Part shown: positions 4,146-47,396 of the stretch, in pieces
How positions within the stretch are numbered: the first letter of the stretch is position 1
Layout of the letters: each line of letters begins with the position of its first letter
From: Escherichia phage vB_EcoM_3HA11
Length of the DNA stretch: 64,000 nt
Sequence record: MN342150
Strand: one strand, 5' to 3'
Notes under the pieces: generated by a model
Databases searched by the model: none
What the model was told of the DNA's origin: nothing
The model's input: the letters and a program-made list of their open reading frames with translations, nothing else
Program-made: the position numbers and the translations under genes

Positions 4146-4814
4146 ATGCAAGAGATCACTCTCTCCGAACGCACTTTACAACTGCTGGCTAACTTTGAAA
4201 CCATCTGCCCCTCTATCGTTCTGGCACCTGGTAAAAAGCTGCGCACCGTTAACGATTCCAGTACAGTTATCGCTATCGCTGATATCGACGAAGACTTCCC
4301 GTTCGAATTCCCGATTCTGGATCTCACCAAACTGCTGGCAATCCAGCGTCTTCCGAGTTTCAAAGGCGGTAAAATTGAAATGTCAGAAGACCACATTTTG
4401 CTGAAAGGTGAAAACTCCCAACTGCAATTCTGGCGTTCCGCTAAAGAATTGACGGTCGTTCCAGCAGACAGCATTGATCTCCCGTCCGTTGAATTCGAAG
4501 CGACGGTCACTCCTGAAAAAATGAAAGAGCTAACCCGCGCCTGTTCTACTCTGGGACACAAAACTGTTCGTCTGGTTGCCAGCGGCGGTAAAACCCGTCT
4601 GGTCGGTACGACTACGACTATCGATAATTCCAACGATTACACCGTTGAATTGGGTGAAACTGCTCTGGCTGATTTCGCTATGCCTGTCGACGTTGTTAAC
4701 CTGAAAATGATCGAAGGCAACTATGTGATCCGCGCCTGTGCTGAAATGCAGCTTGTTAACTTCCAGTCGGCTGACGGCACCATCAACTACTACGTTGGCA
4801 TGCAGCTGGATTAA
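4146..4814 (+). CDS. 45: sliding clamp (DNA polymerase processivity factor gp45)
   Basis: 222 aa; size, position upstream of gp44/gp62/regA, and overall similarity to T4 gp45. RBS GAGGA upstream. Confidence 0.85.
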   Translation: MQEITLSERTLQLLANFETICPSIVLAPGKKLRTVNDSSTVIAIADIDEDFPFEFPILDLTKLLAIQRLPSFKGGKIEMSEDHILLKGENSQLQFWRSAKELTVVPADSIDLPSVEFEATVTPEKMKELTRACSTLGHKTVRLVASGGKTRLVGTTTTIDNSNDYTVELGETALADFAMPVDVVNLKMIEGNYVIRACAEMQLVNFQSADGTINYYVGMQLD

Positions 4815-5888: not shown

Positions 5889-6311
5889 ATGGCCGCTCCG
5901 TCACTGTTCGATTACCTGGGTGCTCTGAACAGCACCAAAGAGAATCTGTTGTTGACCGAAGACCCCGAAATCAGAAAGGCTTTTGATCCTTTCATGACTC
6001 GGCGCGGCCTTGCTCAGAGTAAAGACACGTTGGTGGTTGCAGAACGAATGAACCGCTTCCATGCCATTACTCCTTGGATGCAATGGAACCTTGCGTTTCA
6101 TAGTATTCCAGCAAAACGCCGTTATGACAAATGGTCTAAGAAAGGAGCCATGGACCCTGATGTAAAATTGATTTCTGAGTATTACTACATCAGTCCTGAA
6201 AAGGCTTCTGAGTATGTTCGATTCCTGCCGAAAGAAGTCCTGGCTGAAATCAAGGCGAAGGTCGAACGTTCCAACAGCAACGAAAAAGCTAAACCGCGCA
6301 AGGCTAAGTAA
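5889..6311 (+). CDS. 62: clamp loader small subunit gp62
   Basis: 140 aa immediately after gp44 (4-nt gap); position and KRRYDKWSKK segment resemble T4 gp62. Confidence 0.65.
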   Translation: MAAPSLFDYLGALNSTKENLLLTEDPEIRKAFDPFMTRRGLAQSKDTLVVAERMNRFHAITPWMQWNLAFHSIPAKRRYDKWSKKGAMDPDVKLISEYYYISPEKASEYVRFLPKEVLAEIKAKVERSNSNEKAKPRKAK

Positions 6312-6340: not shown

Positions 6341-6805
6341 ATGGCGCGTAATACGCTGGACATCTTGAAACTTTCAGCTGTTAACGATGAGGCCAGCATC
6401 GTTGATTGTATGGTTGAAGTTCAATTGAACCAAGATAAACCAGGAATTTTCCTGGGTATCAAGGAAACGCTGAGCCGCATCGGGGTGAACACTCGTCAAG
6501 AGCCGAATACCCTGTACCAAACATGTCATATTCTGCATAAATTTGGCAGATATCACATCGTGCACTTCAAGCATCTTTTCATGCTGGATGGGCATTACAA
6601 CGGCTTTACGCGTGAAGATGTCCTGCGTATGAATCGGATTATTCGGCTTTTGGAGCAGTGGAATATGGTTAAAATACTGCATCCGGAACAGATTACCGAA
6701 GTTGCTGATATGTCTCGAATCAAAGTTGTAAAACATGACCAAGTTTCTGATTGGAAACTGGTTCCAAAATATACCATCCGCCCGAGTCGGGCGAAAAGCG
6801 AATAA
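6341..6805 (+). CDS. regA: RegA translational repressor
   Basis: TCHILHKFGRYHIVHFKHLFMLDG and C-terminal WKLVPKYTI match T4 RegA (SCHILQKKGLYYIVHFKEMLRMDG ... WKLVPKYTI). Confidence 0.85.
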   Translation: MARNTLDILKLSAVNDEASIVDCMVEVQLNQDKPGIFLGIKETLSRIGVNTRQEPNTLYQTCHILHKFGRYHIVHFKHLFMLDGHYNGFTREDVLRMNRIIRLLEQWNMVKILHPEQITEVADMSRIKVVKHDQVSDWKLVPKYTIRPSRAKSE

Positions 6806-11578: not shown

Positions 11579-11815
11579 ATGAAACAAATTACTAAGACAG
11601 TACAAATCACCCAATATCAAACGGATGACGGCAGAGTGTTCGATACTCTTGGTCAGGCCGAACATTATGAGAAGATGAAGTCCGGTATTCGCAAGGTATG
11701 CTCTTCTTGTGATGGCAAAGGTCGCGACTCTCCGTCGGGCGACGGGCGTGATATGACGACTTGTCATTATTGTGGTGGTAAAGGCTGGGTAGAAAAGAAA
11801 GAGATATGGGGTTAA
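11579..11815 (+). CDS. small zinc-finger protein (DnaJ-type CxxCxGxG repeats)
   Basis: CSSCDGKG and CHYCGGKG motifs; RBS GGAG. Confidence 0.55.
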   Translation: MKQITKTVQITQYQTDDGRVFDTLGQAEHYEKMKSGIRKVCSSCDGKGRDSPSGDGRDMTTCHYCGGKGWVEKKEIWG

Positions 11816-16048: not shown

Positions 16049-16078
16049 GTTTACTTGAATAAACATTTGCCGTATTAT
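16049..16078 (+). promoter_or_regulatory. early sigma70-type promoter (GTTTAC-N18-TATTAT)
   Basis: T4-early-like -35 GTTTAC and -10 TATTAT, about 55 nt upstream of the 16132 ATG. Confidence 0.45.
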
Positions 16079-16131
16079 TCAATAACTGGCTAACGTGGGG
16101 TTGGTCAGACATTGAATAGGTTGGTTATAAC

Positions 16132-16371
16132 ATGTCAAATAAAAAAGTAGAAACGACAGTAGAAATTGATCGTAATTGGGGATTACTCCGCGCTAAAGGT
16201 TTTCGTCGTGTTTATATGACCAAGGAAGTTTATGTTCAGCGTCGCGACGTTATTATCAGCAAGAAAGGTAAAGAGTGGGTTGCTGAAGAAGTTGACATTG
16301 AAACGGGTGTCGTGGGCAAAGTAAAAGCGAAGGCGGCTATTTTGTTTGCTCTTCTGAAGCATATCAATTAA
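16132..16371 (+). CDS. hypothetical protein (79 aa)
   Basis: ORF downstream of a promoter/terminator cassette. Confidence 0.5.
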   Translation: MSNKKVETTVEIDRNWGLLRAKGFRRVYMTKEVYVQRRDVIISKKGKEWVAEEVDIETGVVGKVKAKAAILFALLKHIN

Positions 16372-16409
16372 TTCTATAATTTACGGCGGGGTAATCATAC
16401 CCCGCCTAT

Positions 16410-16431
16410 TTGAAATTGCAGGAACTATATC
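16410..16431 (+). promoter_or_regulatory. conserved 5' leader motif TTGAAATTGCAGGAACTATATC(ATG)
   Basis: Near-identical 21-22-nt leader, including the SD, recurs before three unrelated genes (16432, 32720, 45979). Confidence 0.5.
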
Positions 16432-16710
16432 ATGACAGATCAAAGAAGTATTGCTCGTTCGGAAATCAAAGATATTATACAGAGCAAGACCAACGAAACT
16501 CATGCTCAATCCAGAATGTTATCTCGATTTGTTGAAATTAAGTTTGACATTGAAGAGAATAACAATCAGAGAGCGCTGGAGGGGATGTTGGCAATTATCT
16601 TGCGCCATTTCACCGATTCAGCATATGACATGGATGATTTAACTCGTTTGTTGAACGCCCAGAATATCGTTGGGACTTCTGTTCGTGAATTGCTGTTTAA
16701 GTCTGAATGA
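16432..16710 (+). CDS. hypothetical protein (92 aa)
   Basis: ORF preceded by a hairpin and the conserved leader motif. Confidence 0.5.
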   Translation: MTDQRSIARSEIKDIIQSKTNETHAQSRMLSRFVEIKFDIEENNNQRALEGMLAIILRHFTDSAYDMDDLTRLLNAQNIVGTSVRELLFKSE

Positions 16711-16747
16711 ACTAACTAAGGGATAACCCTATATCCCGAGGTGTGTC

Positions 16748-20023: not shown

Positions 20024-20311
20024 ATGTCCGGCGTATGGTGTGATGTATTATTAGTGAGATTTTCAAACGGGATGGATAATCAGATCATTTCATTCTTTTA
20101 TCCTGTCCCTTTTTCTTCGATGGGCCTGACCGTCAAGCGCGTTCTTGACATAGAAGAAAAACTCAACGCCATGCCGTATATGGCGCGACCACACGTGCTG
20201 GGTTGTGAACTGTTAAACGAAATGATGATCGATGAGAATCTTGTTGAAACAATTATCACGCGTGAACAGATGAAAACCATACTGGCTCAGGGAGAACCCC
20301 ATGTCGAATAA
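20024..20311 (+). CDS. hypothetical protein (95 aa)
   Basis: RBS GGAGGTG. Confidence 0.5.
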   Translation: MSGVWCDVLLVRFSNGMDNQIISFFYPVPFSSMGLTVKRVLDIEEKLNAMPYMARPHVLGCELLNEMMIDENLVETIITREQMKTILAQGEPHVE

Positions 20312-25477: not shown

Positions 25478-26248
25478 ATGGGTATGAATTTTGTAGACAG
25501 AGGTGATAACGTCACCAAATATTTCACAGACGAAGATAACGATCGAGTTGTGGGGATATTGCGTGATTGGATCCCTGCTCGTAAAAAGGCATTAGCCGAA
25601 GGAACACCCCTACCAAGAATCCCCAATTATGTGGCCATGAATGTTCAGATGATTATTAAGAACATGAGTATGCGCTACAACTATCGTGATTATCCATACC
25701 GCGAAGACATGGTCAGTGAGGCCGTTGTCAACATCCTTCGTTACCTCCATACATTTGATGTCAGTCATATTGGCAAGAAAGGAAAAATCAATTTTTTCTC
25801 TTGGGTAACGATGTGCGCCGACCGTTCATTCGCCAAGAAACTCACCAGTGAAGAAGAACACAATTATATCAAGTTGCGTTCCTTTGAAGAAGCAGGTGGG
25901 TTCGCTGCATTATCGGATGACCCAGACTTCCAACAACAAACCTTCGTTGATAGCACTGGGATAACGATGGACTTTCGTGAGCGTATCGGAAATTTTGAAA
26001 CTAAGAAAGAAGCCCAGCGCGAAAAGGAACGCCAAAAGCAAATCGCCATCAAAGAAGAGGAAAAGAATAAGAAAATTCCTCGCGGTATACTTCAATGTCT
26101 CACAAAGAGTGAAAATACCATTACCGCCGACGCCGAAGATAATTCAGACCATGACTTCGGCTCTACTCAATTTAGTCTTGAAGATATAATGGACAGCCCC
26201 ACATTGTTAGCCGAATCAGTTGGAGAAAAGAATAATGGCGATTGCTAA
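25478..26248 (+). CDS. 55: late-transcription sigma factor gp55
   Basis: Start at ATG 25478 with GAGGA RBS. Architecture and segments (ILRDWIP, RYNYRDYPY, FFSWVTMCADRSFAKKL) parallel T4 gp55 as recalled. Confidence 0.6.
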   Translation: MGMNFVDRGDNVTKYFTDEDNDRVVGILRDWIPARKKALAEGTPLPRIPNYVAMNVQMIIKNMSMRYNYRDYPYREDMVSEAVVNILRYLHTFDVSHIGKKGKINFFSWVTMCADRSFAKKLTSEEEHNYIKLRSFEEAGGFAALSDDPDFQQQTFVDSTGITMDFRERIGNFETKKEAQREKERQKQIAIKEEEKNKKIPRGILQCLTKSENTITADAEDNSDHDFGSTQFSLEDIMDSPTLLAESVGEKNNGDC

Positions 26249-27864
26249 AATTGGCGATTTACACATCGGGAGCCGCAATGGTTCCCGTTACGTTCGTGAA
26301 TTCATAAAGAATTATCTCATCAACTATTTTATTCCCGAATTGGTAGATGCAGACATTAAAGAAGTTTGGCAATTCGGCGACACATTTGATGTTCGTAAAT
26401 TTATGTACGGGCGCGACAAAGATTGGTTGAAAGATGAACTGACGCCAGCCCTGAGAAAGGCGGGTATCAAATGGAATGGCATCGTTGGAAACCATGATAT
26501 CACCTTAGAAGAATCTAACCGTATCAACTGGCCATCCTATCTGAATGAATTAGCGCCAGACGTCTATCATTATTACAGTGAACCCACTGAAGTTTCGATT
26601 GAAGGCGAAAAGGTATTGCTTCTCCCATGGATCAATAAAGAGAATTATGATGCATCTGTTAAAGCGATACAAGATACAGACGCCAAGTACTGTTTTGCGC
26701 ATCTGGAGTTGGCAGGGTTCAAAATGTACCAGTCCTCTGTATGTGATAAAGGTCAGATCGACGTGGCGCTCCTTTCCAAGTTCGAACGCGTGGATACCGG
26801 ACATTTCCATACCCGTTCGATGGAAGGTAACATTCAGTATATTGGGACTCCTTATCACCTTACCTGGGAAGACCATAAAGACGGGACGAACCGAGGATTC
26901 TATGTAGACGATATGAAAGGTGGGGAATTGTTTATTCCCAACAGCGAGCAACAAACGTTGTTCCGATTCATAGAATACGATTACACCCAAATGTCTTCCG
27001 AGAAACCATGATATCACCTTAGAAGAATCTAACCGTATCAACTGGCCATCCTATCTGAATGAATTAGCGCCAGACGTCTATCATTATTACAGTGAACCCA
27101 CTGAAGTTTCGATTGAAGGCGAAAAGGTATTGCTTCTCCCATGGATCAATAAAGAGAATTATGATGCATCTGTTAAAGCGATACAAGATACAGACGCCAA
27201 GTACTGTTTTGCGCATCTGGAGTTGGCAGGGTTCAAAATGTACCAGTCCTCTGTATGTGATAAAGGTCAGATCGACGTGGCGCTCCTTTCCAAGTTCGAA
27301 CGCGTGGATACCGGACATTTCCATACCCGTTCGATGGAAGGTAACATTCAGTATATTGGGACTCCTTATCACCTTACCTGGGAAGACCATAAAGACGGGA
27401 CGAACCGAGGATTCTATGTAGACGATATGAAAGGTGGGGAATTGTTTATTCCCAACAGCGAGCAACAAACGTTGTTCCGATTCATAGAATACGATTACAC
27501 CCAAATGTCTTCCGACACCGAAGGAAATTGGATAGACCCAGATTGGTTAAACAATGATTTGGGTATTGAAGGACAAATCGTTAAGGTGATTGTACAGAAC
27601 CGTGATAATGCTAAGCATTATGAAAAGTTCTGCGACGCGCTGAAGCGTTGTAAATGCATCGATTATAACTTTATAGACCGGACTATCACAGTTGCGTCTG
27701 AGAAGGTAGAAGTCACTGAAGAGATGGTGGCGACTGATGCTGTGGAAGTCCTGAAGAAAGATATCCGCGCCGCCAATAATATCCAGCGCCCTGAAAATGT
27801 TTGCAAATTAGCAGAACAATTCTATAATGCTGCCCAACAACGCCTGAACACATTGGATGCATAA
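26235..27864 (+). pseudogene. 47: recombination nuclease gp47 (Mre11/SbcD-like), frameshifted by a 514-bp tandem duplication
   Basis: Phosphoesterase motifs GDLHIG, GDTFD, GNHD, GHFH. The N-terminal frame stops at 27011 just inside copy 2; a second frame (27130..27864) repeats residues LLPWINKEN..YDYTQMSS and continues to the C-terminus. Confidence 0.8.
26488..27515 (+). repeat. perfect direct tandem duplication, 2 x 514 bp
   Basis: Copies at about 26488..27001 and 27002..27515; ORF-track pairs 26578..26907/27092..27421 (+) are identical and 26550..27041/27064..27504 (-) share an identical 146-aa stretch. 514 is not a multiple of 3. Confidence 0.9.
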
Positions 27865-30200: not shown

Positions 30201-30511
30201 TCATGGGAAGTCTGATTCGTGTATCAAAGAAATCCAAGGGCGCTGAAAAGCGCCTGTACAAAGCCGTTCGCCTGATGATCCTCTACAAGTACAAAGCGGA
30301 GAATCAATGCTGGCGCAAGAAGACACGCGCCCGATATCAGTTGGCTCAGTACAATATGAGGCGTCATGTCGTCCGGCTAGCATTGAAGATCGCAGGGAAT
30401 TACAGTTATTGGACATGTGAGGCTGTGGGCAGTCGCAAGGCAATTGATCTTGTCGAAGACCGGAATCTGTCCTTCCTGATCAATCTATCTAATTATGAGG
30501 ATATGTCATGA
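30197..30511 (+). CDS. small basic hypothetical protein (104 aa)
   Basis: ATGA overlap with gene 46; Lys/Arg-rich. Confidence 0.45.
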   Translation: MIMGSLIRVSKKSKGAEKRLYKAVRLMILYKYKAENQCWRKKTRARYQLAQYNMRRHVVRLALKIAGNYSYWTCEAVGSRKAIDLVEDRNLSFLINLSNYEDMS

Positions 30512-30672
30512 TACCTGAACCATACAAAACAGCAATTTTGATATTTGCCACCATATTGGATGTCGTATTGTTTAACCGCCATATATGTGAAAAGAATTGG
30601 GGTAATGCCTCAATATATTTGGGGTTGGCGTTATTTTTCTGTTATCTCCTGGCAGAAAAAATTATCGCATGA
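30508..30672 (+). CDS. small hydrophobic protein (54 aa)
   Basis: Not in the ORF track (below 60 aa). ATGA overlaps at both ends; predicted MIPEPYKTAILIFATILDVVLF... has two hydrophobic segments. Confidence 0.35.
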   Translation: MIPEPYKTAILIFATILDVVLFNRHICEKNWGNASIYLGLALFFCYLLAEKIIA

Positions 30673-32615: not shown

Positions 32616-32627
32616 ATTATTCAATAA

Positions 32628-32648
32628 AAGGGGCGTTTGCCCCTTTAC
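32628..32648 (+). terminator. stem-loop/terminator (part of a PeSL-like cassette)
   Basis: AAAGGGGCgtttGCCCCTTTAC, fused to the -35 of the adjacent early promoter. Confidence 0.5.
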
Positions 32649-32671
32649 TTCTTCAATAACCCACGTATAAT
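32643..32671 (+). promoter_or_regulatory. early sigma70-type promoter (CTTTAC-N17-TATAAT)
   Basis: Consensus -10 TATAAT with T4-early-like -35; about 50 nt upstream of the 32720 ATG. Confidence 0.55.
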
Positions 32672-32698: not shown

Positions 32699-32719
32699 TT
32701 GAAAAGCAGGAACTACATT
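32699..32719 (+). promoter_or_regulatory. conserved 5' leader motif TTGAAAAGCAGGAACTACATT(ATG)
   Basis: Second copy of the leader motif seen at 16410 and 45958. Confidence 0.5.
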
Positions 32720-32995
32720 ATGAAAATCATCCTCGACGCATATATCCGTTACGGCAGCAAATGTCTCATGGCCAAGGTTTATAACGGCGAAGAATTAGTA
32801 CACGCTCAAACTGCTCCTTCTGAACAATTACGTGAAATTATGGCACGTGATTTCCCTGGCGTTGAAATTGTTGAACCCGCCAACCAAGCCGAAGTTGACA
32901 AAGAATGGGAACGCGAATGGAGTCCAGCGGCGCTTACCCAGGCTGAAAAGAATTGGTCTAACCGCGAAAACGCCAACCGTCCTTTCCGTCGTTAA
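32720..32995 (+). CDS. hypothetical protein (91 aa)
   Basis: ORF with SD AGGAA inside the conserved leader. Confidence 0.5.
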   Translation: MKIILDAYIRYGSKCLMAKVYNGEELVHAQTAPSEQLREIMARDFPGVEIVEPANQAEVDKEWEREWSPAALTQAEKNWSNRENANRPFRR

Positions 32996-33073
32996 GACCC
33001 TGGGGCATATAACGCCCCTTTCTTTTCGCTAATTAAGGGAAACCGCACCGATTTTATAATCAGGAGAATTACA

Positions 33074-35511: not shown

Positions 35512-36081
35512 ATGAAACCGTTTATCGAATATTTTAAAGAACAAGCCCAGCAGCCGCAAACTCATGGCGGTATACAAGGCAAAAGTGTAACCATCACTAA
35601 ACAAGCCGATGGAACACAATGGTGCTCCGGCGCTACCGTGACCCAGATCACTCCTGACAATCAGGCCGATGTCTATAACCTGGAATTGACTAATGGCAAC
35701 ACCACTAAAGTGAAACTGACGCCGGACCAGGTTCATGCGGTTTCTGTGGGCAAAGATGTTGTTGCCGTTCATGACGGATACGAATTCTTCTTTGGTAAAG
35801 ACGCCAGCAAAGGTCAGGTCACAGAATCCTATGCTCAAGAACTAGCGAATATGGATAAGATGATCGGTAAAGCGCTGGGCGTTGGCAAATCTCGTAAAAG
35901 CGGTCGTACAGAGTTTGAATATTCCGGTATTCCTGGTATTGGAAAACCTGTCGCAATCGACTTCGGCGGCGAAGACGATCCGTATGTGATCGTCACAGTC
36001 GCTGGTAAACAGCATGACATCAGTAAGGGAAAAACCCTAGCTGTGGACATTGCCAAATATATCGGCGTGAAACCTGTCTAA
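35512..36081 (+). CDS. internal head protein candidate (CTS-bearing)
   Basis: RBS TAGGAGA; N-terminus MKPFIEYFKEQA resembles the T4 internal-protein capsid targeting sequence MKTYQEFIAEA. Confidence 0.55.
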   Translation: MKPFIEYFKEQAQQPQTHGGIQGKSVTITKQADGTQWCSGATVTQITPDNQADVYNLELTNGNTTKVKLTPDQVHAVSVGKDVVAVHDGYEFFFGKDASKGQVTESYAQELANMDKMIGKALGVGKSRKSGRTEFEYSGIPGIGKPVAIDFGGEDDPYVIVTVAGKQHDISKGKTLAVDIAKYIGVKPV

Positions 36082-36090
36082 GGAGGTTGT

Positions 36091-36330
36091 ATGAAAGGGT
36101 TCCCGGATTTCCTGAAAGAGGCGAAGGTTGACCATCGCCGCCTTGGACAACAAGGTATGTACGACATCACTGATGTTGGCCGCCCCGAAAAAGGCGAACT
36201 GATCGACTACTATGATCGTAACGGGGACAAACATCAGGGGAAAGTGAAGTCTGTGAACGCACAGAATATCATGACTCTGACAAACACCAGCACTGGTGAA
36301 ACAGTCAAACTGACTCTGATTAAGCCATAA
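36091..36330 (+). CDS. internal head protein candidate (CTS-bearing)
   Basis: RBS AAGGAGG; N-terminus MKGFPDFLKEAK. Confidence 0.55.
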   Translation: MKGFPDFLKEAKVDHRRLGQQGMYDITDVGRPEKGELIDYYDRNGDKHQGKVKSVNAQNIMTLTNTSTGETVKLTLIKP

Positions 36331-36360
36331 AAGAAACCCCGCTTCGGCGGGGTTTTTGTT
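36331..36360. terminator. bidirectional rho-independent terminator
   Basis: AAAGAAACCCCGCttcgGCGGGGTTTTTGTT between convergent genes (ends at 36330 and 36359). Confidence 0.7.
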
Positions 36361-36964
36361 ACTTCACGTACATACAGACCTGGACCTTCTTGCCTTTGTC
36401 GTTCTTGACTTCTACTAATTTAGAAGCGCCATTCAGCTTGACGACAGTCCCCTTTTCCTTCCCACCACTTGGCAATTCATATTCAATCTCTTCACCAGGA
36501 GAAGGCATGCCAGCGCTTGGCCCCATAACAGCAGAGATCTTGTAACGTGCCATACCAGGGCGACCACCTTTGAAGGCATACCAGCCACCTTCTTGCATGT
36601 CTTTCCACTGTTTGTTACCGTCAACAACAATGGATGGATTACCGAAACCGGCCTTGATACCCAGCAAGTCAATTGTCTTTCCCGACTTGTTGTATTTTAC
36701 GGCAGTGTCACCATCAAACTTGTCCAGCATCTGAGTACTGGCGAACTGCCCGTCTTTGATACCAGAAGCAGCGATAACGTCCTTGGCGTTTGTCAGGACA
36801 ATCTTGCGCCCGTCTGGGGTTTCGAAAGTCACCTTATCACCAGAAACATCGGCGTGGAGGAACGTACCCGCAACGTCTTCTGTTGATTTACCGATCTTGT
36901 CAGACTTGATATGTGCAGACATCGGCGGCGCGGCTTCGGTCAAAAAGTCTTGAAAAGTTTTCAT
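36359..36964 (-). CDS. internal head protein candidate (CTS-bearing)
   Basis: RBS TGGAGAA; N-terminus MKTFQDFLTEA is nearly identical to the T4 IPI/IPII/IPIII CTS (MKTYQEFIAEA), with a Glu-Ala processing-site-like junction. Confidence 0.65.
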   Translation of the reverse strand: MKTFQDFLTEAAPPMSAHIKSDKIGKSTEDVAGTFLHADVSGDKVTFETPDGRKIVLTNAKDVIAASGIKDGQFASTQMLDKFDGDTAVKYNKSGKTIDLLGIKAGFGNPSIVVDGNKQWKDMQEGGWYAFKGGRPGMARYKISAVMGPSAGMPSPGEEIEYELPSGGKEKGTVVKLNGASKLVEVKNDKGKKVQVCMYVK

Positions 36965-37051
36965 TTCGTTCTCCAGTTATATTATTCTATATAGTACCTC
37001 ATAGACCCCATTAACACTAAATACTAGACAGTTCAACAATAGGAAACAATC

Positions 37052-38085: not shown

Positions 38086-39149
38086 TGAAATTCTTAGACG
38101 AACAATACATCAATTTCCTCGCCCCTCGGCTTGACAAGTTCAGCTGGGAACGCGTAGGCGCTGTCGCCAAGTTCCGTTGCCCTCTATGCGGGGACTCTAA
38201 GAAGAGTGCCAACAAACGTCGTGGTCACTTCTTTTATGATCGCGATGAAGATGTGTTTCGTTTTAAGTGTCACAACTGCAACGAGATGAGTGGTTGGTCG
38301 TTTGAGTTTTGGTTGAAGAAGTTTGATGAAAGATTGTACAACGAATATAATCTTGAAAAATTCAGAATCATGGGGGACACCAATTCACGCCCCCTACAAA
38401 AACTCAAGCCATTACAGCGCCTCACCCAAACAGCGCGTATCGGCTCCCAAGTTGCCAAAAGAGATGAAGAGCATCTCGGCAACATGATACGATTAGATTT
38501 ACTTGATCGTGACCATATTGCTCGTCGTTACGTGGAAGGCAGGGGAATGCCGGAGAGCGCGTTATCTCTTTTGTATTACAGCAAGAACTTCCGCAAGGAT
38601 CTTTTGAATTTTGAAACAGACGTTGAAAAACAGAAGAAGATCCCTGAAGATGAACGGTTGGTTATCCCATTCTGGACTCAAGACGGTCGCATGAAGATCG
38701 TTCAGGGGCGCGCATTCGGTGATAACCTTCCTGATAATGTGTTGCGGTACGCCACTGTCAAGCCCAAAAACGAGGATACTAAAATCTATGGGGAAGAGCG
38801 CATCATATGGAATAAGACCAAATTGGTCGTTGAAGGTCCAATTGATAGCCTGTTCCTCCCGAATTGTTTAGCAACTGCGGATGCTGACCTTCTGAGCGCC
38901 AAGGGGGATATCTATATCCCTGACAACCAATATCGAAACAAACAAGTTTGTGATGGTATACAGAAAATGATAGACAGCGGAGTCAAAGTCGTTCTGTTCC
39001 CGCCAGAAATTCCATGGAAGGATATCAACGATATGGTTCGCCCCGACAAGGGAAATATCCCGATACGTGATCTGCTTCAGATCATAGCCAAGAACGTATA
39101 TCAGGGGATGTCGGCGTCCTTACGATTTTCTGACTTGAGGAAGATATGA
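38085..39149 (+). CDS. 61: DNA primase gp61 (zinc ribbon + Toprim)
   Basis: KFRCPLCGDSKKSANKRRGHF ... CHNCN zinc ribbon; Toprim motifs LVVEGPIDSLF and DNQ; C-terminal region like T4 gp61. Confidence 0.85.
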   Translation: MKFLDEQYINFLAPRLDKFSWERVGAVAKFRCPLCGDSKKSANKRRGHFFYDRDEDVFRFKCHNCNEMSGWSFEFWLKKFDERLYNEYNLEKFRIMGDTNSRPLQKLKPLQRLTQTARIGSQVAKRDEEHLGNMIRLDLLDRDHIARRYVEGRGMPESALSLLYYSKNFRKDLLNFETDVEKQKKIPEDERLVIPFWTQDGRMKIVQGRAFGDNLPDNVLRYATVKPKNEDTKIYGEERIIWNKTKLVVEGPIDSLFLPNCLATADADLLSAKGDIYIPDNQYRNKQVCDGIQKMIDSGVKVVLFPPEIPWKDINDMVRPDKGNIPIRDLLQIIAKNVYQGMSASLRFSDLRKI

Positions 39150-39355
39150 TGGATTTGAAAGAACTGAATAGTATGGACGATGAAGAGATTCTTCGTGGGT
39201 ATATGCAAGCCCGTGAAGGATATGTCCTATCTGGCTTAGAATCTAAGAGTTTCATCCATGGTTGGAGGAACGGAATGGTGGACTTCGGTGGTTGTCCTAT
39301 CACTGAAGAACAAATGAATTTGGCTCGCCAGTATTTGAAAAAGAAGCCGACCTAA
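39146..39355 (+). CDS. hypothetical protein (69 aa)
   Basis: ATGA overlap with the primase gene. Confidence 0.45.
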   Translation: MMDLKELNSMDDEEILRGYMQAREGYVLSGLESKSFIHGWRNGMVDFGGCPITEEQMNLARQYLKKKPT

Positions 39356-39447: not shown

Positions 39448-39477
39448 CTTTACTCTTCAATAATCATGCACTATTAT
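39448..39477 (+). promoter_or_regulatory. early sigma70-type promoter (CTTTAC-N18-TATTAT)
   Basis: Same -35 context (CTTTACTCTTCAATAA) as the promoter at 32643. Confidence 0.5.
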
Positions 39478-39554
39478 AGTTCACATAGGGCGGTACACAA
39501 CACCCCGCCGAATGAAAAGTGAAACGACCCAACTACATTATGAGGAATTACATC

Positions 39555-40043
39555 ATGGCTACTACCAAAACTCTGATCACCAACGGCACCATCTCTTTTG
39601 AACTGAACACCGAAGTTGCAAAAGTTGAAATGTTCCGCATCGCGCAGGCAGCTGGCTTCACTGGTGGCAAAACTTCCTTCATGAATCTGCTGAACGGCAA
39701 AGTGAAAGCAACCAACGGTTTCACCCTGGTAGAGCAGGTTGTCGTAGACAAAGCCGTGGTTGCCAAGACTGCTGACAAGGTTGGCATGCTGAAAGGCCTG
39801 GGTCATGATATCCACGTCGTTGAAGCCAACACAGAGACCTACGGCACAATCGTAACAGAAAAAGGCCGTGTGCAACTGAACCCTCTTAACAACGGCACCT
39901 TCTCGGTAATGGTCTTCCCTAAAAAGGGCTATGCCAACGACGACATCGTCAAGGCGGCGGGCGGCGAAGCGAAGTCCCAGTATGTCAAGATGGGCAAGCT
40001 GAGCGCCGACGCAGTAGAAACTCTGGTGAACAAACTGGCTTAA
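39555..40043 (+). CDS. hypothetical protein (163 aa), monocistronic early gene
   Basis: SD GAGGA; lies between its own promoter and terminator; Ala/Val/Lys-rich. Alternative start 39540. Confidence 0.55.
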   Translation: MATTKTLITNGTISFELNTEVAKVEMFRIAQAAGFTGGKTSFMNLLNGKVKATNGFTLVEQVVVDKAVVAKTADKVGMLKGLGHDIHVVEANTETYGTIVTEKGRVQLNPLNNGTFSVMVFPKKGYANDDIVKAAGGEAKSQYVKMGKLSADAVETLVNKLA

Positions 40044-45872: not shown

Positions 45873-45880
45873 TCTTTCAA

Positions 45881-45908
45881 AGCCCCTGATCTAGGGGCTT
45901 TACTTTTG
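45881..45908 (+). terminator. stem-loop/terminator (part of a PeSL-like cassette)
   Basis: AGCCCCTGatctaGGGGCTTTACTTTTG, overlapping the -35 of the next promoter. Confidence 0.55.
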
Positions 45909-45927
45909 AAACCTTTCCGCCTATACT
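45898..45927 (+). promoter_or_regulatory. early sigma70-type promoter (CTTTAC-N18-TATACT)
   Basis: T4-early-like -35 with a -10-like hexamer, about 50 nt upstream of the 45979 ATG. Confidence 0.45.
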
Positions 45928-45957: not shown

Positions 45958-45978
45958 TTGAATAGCAGGAACTATATC
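45958..45978 (+). promoter_or_regulatory. conserved 5' leader motif TTGAATAGCAGGAACTATATC(ATG)
   Basis: Third copy of the leader motif. Confidence 0.5.
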
Positions 45979-46212
45979 ATGACCAACTCTGAAATATATC
46001 ATGCTTCTATGCATTATCACGACCTACGCGCCCGTCCAGGACACGCCAAACAAAAAGCATTCTGGGTGGCAGAACTCAGATTACGCCGTGCTGTCGTTAA
46101 CCACCAAATAATCATGAATCGGAAAAACGACAAATCACCGTTGTTGGCAGATTCTTATCTTGAACTCCGCACAGCCTATGAACAAGCCAAACAGCACGTA
46201 ATAGGAGCATAA
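45979..46212 (+). CDS. hypothetical protein (77 aa)
   Basis: ORF with SD AGGAA inside the conserved leader. Confidence 0.5.
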   Translation: MTNSEIYHASMHYHDLRARPGHAKQKAFWVAELRLRRAVVNHQIIMNRKNDKSPLLADSYLELRTAYEQAKQHVIGA

Positions 46213-46213
46213 T

Positions 46214-46675
46214 ATGTCCAACAAATTACTCACCAACCCCCGCCACAACTTTGGTTATATCCAATTACCAGAAGTGATAGACACGTTGTTTGCTGAAGAC
46301 AAGGAAGAAGTTTGTTGGGCACCAGCGACCCTTATTGAACGCGAAATTTTCAAATCTGAAGTAGACGTGATGTTCCGCATCGGTTCATCCGGAGACCTTC
46401 ATTATTTGGGGAAAGTGACCGAGTTAAAGACCTGCCATGCTCAAAGATTTTTGCGCATTGACACCACTCAATGTGAAGACATTTCATTTAGCATTCTGCG
46501 TGAATATGTTCAGGTCAACCGTCCTGTGTATCAGCACCGTCCTTATTTGACGTCGATGCACATAGACAATTATATTTCCGACATTCATTTACGTGCATCA
46601 ACTATCCATGAAGAAGATTCTGGTATCGCGGTTGATACAGTACTCAATATGATCGTCATTACTTTGGTGCCGTGA
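46214..46675 (+). CDS. hypothetical protein (153 aa)
   Basis: Tightly packed ORF; no recognisable domain. Confidence 0.5.
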   Translation: MSNKLLTNPRHNFGYIQLPEVIDTLFAEDKEEVCWAPATLIEREIFKSEVDVMFRIGSSGDLHYLGKVTELKTCHAQRFLRIDTTQCEDISFSILREYVQVNRPVYQHRPYLTSMHIDNYISDIHLRASTIHEEDSGIAVDTVLNMIVITLVP

Positions 46676-46676
46676 T

Positions 46677-47015
46677 ATGTACAAATTCCCGATATTCGAA
46701 ACAGTGTACTCTGTTCACAAAAAGGAAGGTCCATTATTTGAAAATTTGGATATTCTGTTAAAGGAAAAAGTCCGTATCCCTCTGGTTCTAAAGGGAAAGC
46801 AAATAGGATATAGCCATGACTGCCAAATAATGCGTTCTGAAGGCACCGACGTCTTACGCATCCGTCTAACATTTGTGTTGACGGGGAGACTAGATGGTGT
46901 GGTGGTTAACCTAAAGCCAACCACCATAGTCCACAGAACGGGTGGGAAAATATTATATCGTTTATTAACTCATTTTGAGTTGGTGACAAAATGCTCTGCC
47001 ACGGACGTTCTTTAA
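46677..47015 (+). CDS. hypothetical protein (112 aa)
   Basis: ORF; no recognisable domain. Confidence 0.45.
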   Translation: MYKFPIFETVYSVHKKEGPLFENLDILLKEKVRIPLVLKGKQIGYSHDCQIMRSEGTDVLRIRLTFVLTGRLDGVVVNLKPTTIVHRTGGKILYRLLTHFELVTKCSATDVL

Positions 47016-47396
47016 TCAATTTGTCCGTTTCAACCATATCGTGTCTGTTATCGGCTCTGGGTTGTTGACCACATAGAACGTGATGGTTACGCCCAGAGAA
47101 TGATAATCGTCAGACAATGACACATCAACTGATTGTATCTCCGCTCTCGGTTCAAATAAAGCAATCGCGTCTTCAACTTTGTTTTTAACATCAACCTGAA
47201 TTGTGGGATTCGTATTTTCCCCCAGCATGGTATACAGCCCAGCCCCGATACTTGGGTATGTCGGCCAATCCCCAACTGTTGTCATCACGATATTTCGTAC
47301 GGATTGCAACACGGCATAGACACCTGTTTTCTTTGTGACATCTTTGGTGACCGGATGCATGCCAAACTTCAGGTCAATGTCCTTGTACTCTTTCAT
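47016..47396 (-). CDS. 25: baseplate wedge protein gp25-like (GPW/gp25 family)
   Basis: ATG 47396 with SD AAGGGG (the track start at 47429 is GTG). YKDIDLKF ... VRNIVMTTVGDWPTYPSIGAGL ... EPRAEIQSVDV ... ITFYVVNNPEP parallels T4 gp25. Confidence 0.75.
   Translation of the reverse strand: MKEYKDIDLKFGMHPVTKDVTKKTGVYAVLQSVRNIVMTTVGDWPTYPSIGAGLYTMLGENTNPTIQVDVKNKVEDAIALFEPRAEIQSVDVSLSDDYHSLGVTITFYVVNNPEPITDTIWLKRTN

Follow-up and report, generated by a model that had tools for sequence, protein, structure and literature searches.

A leader motif of 21 to 22 nt that precedes three unrelated small genes in this 64,000-nt stretch of Escherichia phage vB_EcoM_3HA11 (MN342150; the whole stretch is referred to here as the window) is likely to be the ribosome-binding module of PeSL-like (promoter-early stem-loop) cassettes that lie at three accessory-gene exchange slots in the Ackermannviridae. 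This interpretation draws on direct observations: the anatomy and conservation of the cassettes, allelic replacement of the ORFs behind them, breakpoints that fall at the ATG, and repeat footprints left at junctions. It is envisioned that each cassette would be kept by selection and would give transcription and translation signals to the small ORF behind it, that this ORF is repeatedly replaced, inserted, or deleted between related phages, and that the short identical blocks (the leader, the terminator, and the -35 region) would provide homology patches for the phage recombination system, as in the PeSL model; that is, the cassettes probably also act as recombination patches. No description of the motif in the Ackermannviridae was found in the literature searched, which covered PeSLs and Kuttervirus promoters and transcriptomes.

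The window is 96 to 98% identical to Kuttervirus phages, for example, Salmonella phages SJ2 and Vi01 (Ackermannviridae); coordinates refer to its plus strand unless stated otherwise. Direct reading of the sequence bore out the first-pass annotation, which had placed the motif directly 5' of the ATGs at 16432, 32720, and 45979. At these three loci it takes the form TTGAA(N2-3)GCAGGAACTAYATY and then ATG, and it can be divided into an A/U-rich TTGAA block, the Shine-Dalgarno (SD) sequence AGGA(A), the spacer CTAYAYC, and the ATG, with AC often next. Leaders were scored with a PWM built from 27 leader variants (cutoff, >=12 bits). Copy 1 (16410 to 16431; TTGAAATTGCAGGAACTATATC; 29.8 bits) has the SD AGGA and the spacer CTATATC and abuts the ATG at 16432; copy 2 (32699 to 32719; TTGAAAAGCAGGAACTACATT; 26.0 bits) abuts the ATG at 32720, and copy 3 (45958 to 45978; TTGAATAGCAGGAACTATATC; 30.3 bits) abuts the ATG at 45979. 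The exact 17-mer GCAGGAACTAYATYATG occurs three times in the window. When up to three mismatches were allowed, five matches were found there versus 0.48 expected, and 0 of 100 dinucleotide shuffles reached five. The two additional matches are a diverged fourth copy at 707 to 728 (TTGAAACAGCAGGAAATAAATC; 20.6 bits), which precedes a uvsY homologue (ATG at 729) at the locus corresponding to Vi01_139c, and a weaker, loose look-alike at 39541 to 39554 (TGAGGAATTACATC; 17.4 bits) before the ATG at 39555. The three strict copies precede ORFs of 92 amino acids (16432 to 16710; phrog_4458), 91 amino acids (32720 to 32995; phrog_5704), and 77 amino acids (45979 to 46212; phrog_5206), which fall into three different PHROGs, all of unknown function; the best pairwise blastp E value was 0.46, in agreement with the earlier statement that the encoded proteins show no similarity.

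In all three cassettes, the 3' end consists of the SD and the start codon, the leader running up to the ATG. The order of elements is the same at sites 2 and 3: the end of the upstream gene, a GC-rich hairpin, a T-tail that runs into TTTACT, a putative promoter, about 30 nt of spacer, and the leader. By sequence match, the promoters are of the T4-early, sigma-70-like type (TTTACT-N16/17-TATAMT). At site 2, the predicted terminator hairpin (32627 to 32646; AAAGGGGC-gttt-GCCCCTTT) has a T-tail that enters the -35 element of the putative promoter at 32644 to 32671 (TTTACT-N16-TATAAT; 10/12 matches); among relatives, its stem is invariant (identity of 1.0) and its loop is variable (0.38). At site 3, the candidate terminator hairpin that follows grx (45879 to 45901; AAAGCCCCT-gatct-AGGGGCTTT) shows compensatory stem changes in relatives (AGCCCCT/AGGGGCT versus AGCCCCC/GGGGGCT), and the putative promoter lies at 45899 to 45927 (TTTACT-N17-TATACT; 9/12 matches).

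The cassette at site 1 consists of a hairpin and the leader only. The GC-rich hairpin (16385 to 16406; GGCGGGGT-aatcat-ACCCCGCC) is immediately 5' of the leader, its stems have pairwise identities of 0.89 to 0.96 in relatives, and it is probably a terminator or attenuator for the 79-amino-acid ORF at 16132 to 16371. The promoter scan found no sigma-70-like promoter between this hairpin and the upstream gene, and relatives do not conserve the TATAAT at 16374; transcription of site 1 probably reads through from a putative promoter at 16050. The latter is one of two further TTTACT promoters, the other being at 39449, and both precede loose leader look-alikes. The authors of the CBA120 genome paper state that they could not identify early promoters (PMC3184105).

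Two side observations concern these hairpins. The site 1 hairpin, with its loop AATCAT, is the exact reverse complement of the version found in most relatives (loop, ATGATT); the stem being a perfect palindrome, only the loop is flipped, and blastn reports a reversed 22-nt match. The region at 39449 to 39557, which is only 83% identical to Vi01, comprises a putative TTTACT-N17-TATTAT promoter (39449 to 39477), a GC-rich 5' untranslated region hairpin (GGGCGGT-acacaac-ACCCCGCC) whose sequence resembles that of the site 1 hairpin, the loose leader, and the ATG at 39555.

The genes behind the leaders were compared at loci of relatives taken from IMG/VR, 15 to 20 per site, each set anchored on the conserved upstream gene: the 79-amino-acid ORF for site 1 (L092 to L108), a 212-amino-acid DUF7270 protein for site 2 (L077 to L091), and grx for site 3 (L053 to L072). 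The comparison covers Kuttervirus, Taipeivirus, and Limestonevirus. All of the collected relatives keep the cassette, including the leader, and differ in the first gene behind it. Altogether, 13 unrelated protein families were found directly behind the leaders. Four occupy slot 1: the 92-amino-acid family of the window (MTDQRS), denV (MTRINV), a 168-amino-acid family (MTDQQIQ), and a signal-peptide protein (MKKLIL). Five occupy slot 2: the 91-amino-acid family of the window (MKIILDAY) and families of 122 (MTKTELNN), 123 (MNAIKTDF), 111 (MTQLKNFT), and 77 (MTTVTGFY) amino acids. Four occupy slot 3: the 77-amino-acid family of the window (MTNSEIY), a family of about 150 amino acids whose member in the window is the next gene (46214), and families of 121 (MYLNTPAV) and 67 (MSKQLLPH) amino acids. 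In at least two relatives, Vi01 and bering, the 92-amino-acid ORF of slot 1 is the second gene, after an alternative first gene. The 77-amino-acid ORF of slot 3 is absent from Taipeivirus and Limestonevirus, where the leader precedes a homologue of the next gene (46214 to 46675; about 150 amino acids). The alternative slot ORFs are missing from the window and, apart from denV, from Vi01 as well; none was found relocated. Since none of the 13 families was found at more than one slot, the movement between slots that leader similarity might suggest was not observed. Seven of the 13 families start with ATGAC (Met-Thr), compared with 6 of 63 window genes (hand-calculated binomial probability, about 1e-4), an excess which suggests that the shared block extends into codon 2.

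Breakpoints were located by blastn of the window against the relatives' loci. Upstream homology ends about 1 to 9 nt past the first base of each ATG. At site 1, it ends at 16435 to 16443 and resumes at 16703 to 16712. At site 2, it ends at 32723/32724 and resumes at 33014 to 33026 (33116 in L089), a resumption that falls in or just after the predicted terminator at 33002 to 33018. At site 3, it ends at 45981/45987 and resumes at 46214 to 46234, where the next gene aligns, except that in L063, L065, and L072 homology is back only near 47012 to 47041; in Klebsiella, Serratia, and Dickeya phages, which belong to distant genera, the blastn alignment runs from nrdB through grx and the cassette only up to 45987. 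The earlier suggestion that the motif might be the 3' edge of a mobile regulatory cassette is thus well supported: the leader is the last part of hairpin/promoter/leader cassettes, and homology to relatives is lost at the ATG, beyond which the genes have been exchanged.

Several junctions carry repeat footprints. For example, denV lies behind the site 1 leader in Vi01 and is absent from the window, where the junction of this indel is the 12-bp repeat CTATATCATGAC; the 3' end of Vi01 denV reads ...caatttTGAagaggCTATATCATGAC, a shortened leader in which TGA serves as the denV stop codon. In phage bering (L049/L095), the 168-amino-acid ORF lies between two copies of about 60 nt of hairpin and leader, 559 nt apart. 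Likewise, an extra ORF in L063 lies between duplicated terminator hairpins, and an HNH ORF in L061 is flanked by duplicated TTTACTTT. In L093, the leader is kept and is followed by an 8-codon remnant ORF. The HNH-type endonuclease ORF of L061 sits between the grx terminator and the site 3 promoter (locus positions of about 1760 to 2576), and Dickeya phages have the homing endonuclease F-LimI annotated at the same place. In a separate observation, a single IMG/VR contig (3300045988_107072; L090 and L070) has at site 2 the leader TTGAATAGCAGGAACTATATC, which is the usual site 3 leader, and at its own site 3 the leader TTGAAAGCGGGAACTATATC; this pattern may reflect exchange between sites.

Crossovers in PeSLs have been mapped between the -10 element and the SD/ATG and in AT-rich or stem-loop parts (PMC2839356). 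We infer that the precise breakpoints in the present case would arise by recombination inside the leader and not by selection acting on random junctions; breakpoints at ORF borders could also be explained by selection filtering random illegitimate events.

The cassettes most closely recall the PeSLs of the T4-like phages RB49/phi1, T4/PST, and nt-1/KVP40 (PMC2839356, PMC4122927). PeSLs have a stem-loop, an early promoter, and an SD and start codon at the 3' end (PMC2839356, PMC4122927), a layout comparable to the stem-loop, putative sigma-70-like early promoter (sites 2 and 3 only), and SD/start codon assembled in the window, and the putative site 2 promoter fits the T4/PST PeSL promoter consensus, TTTACW-N17-TAYWAT (PMC4122927). 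In both systems, several copies per genome border small ORFs without known function, which vary among close relatives by insertion, deletion, or replacement; the junctions lie inside cassette subelements, and duplicated cassette sequence is found on both sides of some of the inserted ORFs. Unlike the PeSL phages, which belong to the Straboviridae, the window comes from the Ackermannviridae, and it represents a system with three strict copies and about a dozen loose leaders, whereas RB49 has dozens. Furthermore, the block most similar between copies is here the leader and not the promoter or stem-loop, site 1 has no recognizable promoter and is therefore not a full PeSL, and slots 1 and 2 share a stop-rich patch on the right-hand side. 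Promoter and terminator activity and minicircles have been demonstrated for RB49; here, the promoters and terminators are predicted from sequence, and the leader would act in translation. As far as sequence comparison can tell, the cassettes have most of the hallmarks of PeSLs that it can test, the exceptions being the site 1 promoter and the low copy number.

Mean pairwise identities were calculated over 11 to 17 distinct relatives. The leader has values of 0.84 to 0.89 (0.84 at site 1, over 16 distinct relatives; 0.87 at site 2; 0.89 at site 3), versus 0.59 to 0.65 for the third-codon positions of the adjacent upstream gene and 0.38 to 0.70 for the hairpin loops (sites 2 and 3) and the spacer between the -35 and -10 elements. 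Values for the -10 element (0.93 to 0.98; 0.98 at site 3) and the stem/-35 blocks (0.95 to 0.98; 0.95 at site 3) are higher. Because its identity exceeds that of the third-codon positions, the leader is judged to be under constraint, to a lesser extent than the putative promoter and terminator cores. In relatives, TTGAA and CTAYAYC-ATG persist where the SD core changes, as in the variants TTGAAACCAAGAGACTATATC, TTGAAGAGACTATATC, and TTGAAAGCGGGTACTACATC.

These values bear on a different explanation, in which the motif has no function beyond an ordinary SD and its copies resemble each other through common descent or through gene conversion between a few intergenic regions, the breakpoints being due purely to selection for intact ORFs. 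There are, after all, only three or four strict copies, the three leaders differ more from each other in other genomes than they do here, and the presence of a site 3-type leader at site 2 in L090 is consistent with conversion. In addition, accessibility of the start region is not special: its predicted unpaired probability (-15 to +5) places the three sites at the 42nd, 89th, and 20th percentiles of 64 window genes, and with values so unremarkable the idea that the leader is an optimized open ribosome-binding site was dropped. However, across three genera the leader is conserved well above both third-codon positions and neighboring spacers, its TTGAA and CTATATC parts outlast changes to the SD core, and the repeat footprints at the junctions point to homology-driven events. 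We regard this explanation as rather unlikely.

The right-hand boundary of the slots invites a bolder version of the cassette model. Slot 1 is bounded by a patch at 16712 to 16727 (CTAACTAAGGGATAAC) that, with the following bases, places TAA in all three frames; it is followed by a conserved small hairpin (GGGATA-loop-TATCCC) and then by the next gene. Slot 2 is closed by a predicted terminator hairpin at 33002 to 33018 (GGGGC-atataac-GCCCC, then TTTCTTTT), the stem sequence of which varies with the ORF allele, and by a patch at 33029 to 33044 (CTAATTAAGGGAAACC) that matches the slot 1 patch at 13 of 16 bases. The downstream edges of slots 1 and 2 thus have the stop-rich patch CTAAYTAAGGGAWAMC in common. 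TAAYTAAGG occurs in the window only at these two boundaries and in Vi01 only at the same two and at 20252, and several alternative slot 1 ORFs of relatives stop on the TAAs of the patch. As a post hoc observation, the patch is of uncertain significance. It can be imagined that the leader and the right-hand stop-rich CTAAYTAAGGGA form integron-like "expression slots" of the Ackermannviridae, in which a specific mechanism acting on short sequences would capture incoming ORFs, placing them after a constant start signal (SD, ATG, and often AC) and before stops in all three frames, with or without coregulation via the leader by one RNA-binding factor such as RegA, or that such coregulation alone is at work; we consider these proposals unlikely.

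A regulatory role was also considered in which the leader is an RNA operator for RegA or another phage RNA-binding protein that competes with the 30S subunit and silences the accessory genes together. The RegA homologue that the first-pass annotation had assigned to 6341 to 6805 was confirmed (Pfam PF01818; E value, 6e-35), and the position of the motif is suitable: like the RegA operators of T4 and RB69, it abuts the AUG and has no consistent structure. In T4, the approximately 30 RegA targets have poorly conserved, unstructured sites that either overlap the AUG or lie just upstream of it (PMC3014915). A protein-binding site would likewise be in keeping with the conservation of TTGAA and CTAYAYC outside the SD core. 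However, the motif bears no resemblance to the T4 RegA SELEX consensus, aaAAUUGUUAUGUAA (PMC3014915), matching it by eye at four of nine positions upstream of the AUG, although the divergent RegA of the window may differ in specificity, and AAAUUG is present only at site 1, 16 nt from the AUG. The motif is also absent from the listed start regions of homologues of classic T4 RegA targets at 4146 (gene 45), 4895 (gene 44), and 6341 (regA); the gene 62 start at 5889 falls outside this list, as the start picker took 5994. The genes that do carry it are dispensable accessory ORFs, and tolerated leader variants, such as TTGAAGAGACTATATC and TTGAAAGCGGGTACTACATC, change the block substantially. Moreover, RegA control leaves unexplained why the motif is placed with promoter/terminator cassettes at indel junctions. 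Nothing links the RegA of the window to the motif, and the operator alternative that was proposed along with the gene assignment found no positive support; we consider operator function of this kind decidedly unlikely.

Genome-wide counts were made on the complete Vi01 genome (157 kb, about 208 genes). The strict 17-mer occurs there only at the three orthologous loci. The PWM scan gave 17 hits, versus 1.9 in shuffles, and 15 of the 17 end on annotated start codons, so that about 15 of 208 genes (about 7%) have a graded version of the motif, with (T/C)TGA(A), a purine-rich SD, CTAYAYC, and ATG; these comprise three strict copies, one diverged copy, and about 11 loose leaders. The reading of the motif as nothing other than the generic ribosome-binding context of the phage draws on word counts before Vi01 genes, in which AGGAA ranks first among SD pentamers (30 of 210 starts) and CTATAT first among spacer hexamers (8 of 210 starts). 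The strict form, however, precedes only 3 of about 208 genes and even the loose form only about 15, and SD contexts at the 89 predicted starts of the window are varied. The generic-context reading, which had been named at the outset as the one that would overturn the motif, is thus highly improbable and has already been refuted by the genome-wide scans: the strict motif joins the commonest SD and spacer words of the phage family, and a minority of genes use it. Exact matches to the motif in unrelated IMG/VR contigs were taken as chance matches; none had cassette context, and the ORFs behind them were mostly of 1 to 23 codons, with a few longer ones of up to 348.

It is scarcely credible that the leader is a structured cis-regulatory RNA (riboswitch, thermosensor, or small-RNA target) or a promoter starting at TTGAAA, although the promoter scan did find TTGAAA-N17-GAAAAT at 32699 to 32727 (9/12 matches). 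The whole window gave no hits to Rfam families, and the leader has no shared pairing partner because the sequence 5' of it differs at each site. As a -35 element, TTGAAA was rejected: the match at site 2 is weak, its -10 element would fall in variable coding sequence, and sites 1 and 3 have no equivalent.

Two further known systems resemble the cassettes in part. The morons of lambdoid phages are likewise small, variably present accessory genes with their own promoter and terminator; however, a moron is inserted as a complete unit together with its signals, whereas here the cassette is fixed and the ORF changes. Sites of the T4 endoribonuclease RegB (GG*AGRAYARAA, in the SDs of early mRNAs) are comparable in that the motif, too, is conserved and has GGA within the SD of transcripts presumed to be early. 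The sequence GGAACUAUAUC departs from the GGAG/RAYARAA consensus (PMC3014915), and the motif was rejected as a RegB site; for ViI-like phages, a RegB homologue has yet to be reported (PMC3184105).

Little is known about the regulatory signals of ViI-like (Ackermannviridae) phages, and the PeSL-like cassette model provides three concrete, conserved candidate hairpin/promoter/leader units. If the model holds, the promoter/stem-loop type of gene shuffling known from T4-like phages extends to a second family of large myoviruses. The results also pinpoint three places at which therapeutic Kuttervirus phages differ in accessory genes, for example, in the presence or absence of denV, and foreign genes might be inserted and expressed at the three slots.

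Other differences between the window and Vi01 were noted. The window contains a perfect 514-bp tandem duplication, in which 26488 to 27001 is identical to 27002 to 27515 at 514 of 514 bases, as determined by repeat search and direct comparison. It lies inside the SbcD/gp47 homologue, which is split into two ORFs (26220 to 27011 and 27130 to 27864), both assigned to phrog_100, and the segment is present in a single copy in Vi01. An assembly or circularization artifact is as likely as a real duplication, given the perfect identity and a unit length (514) that is not divisible by 3. A segment of about 970 nt at 36075 to 37040 is absent from Vi01 and could represent a gene interrupted by an inserted element; it contains a plus-strand ORF of 79 amino acids (36091 to 36330), which matches only positions 271 to 348 of the 676-position profile phrog_5709, and a minus-strand ORF of 200 amino acids (36359 to 36964) with no PHROG hit. 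Further small-ORF indels were seen at 11593 to 11814, 30512 to 30669, 39148 to 39340, 16104/16132, 40277/40305, and 44527/44534. The window has additional ORFs of 54 amino acids (30508 to 30672) and 69 amino acids (39146 to 39355); Vi01_121c, Vi01_087c, and Vi01_083c are absent from it. At 16104 to 16131, it is the leader itself that differs between the window and Vi01.
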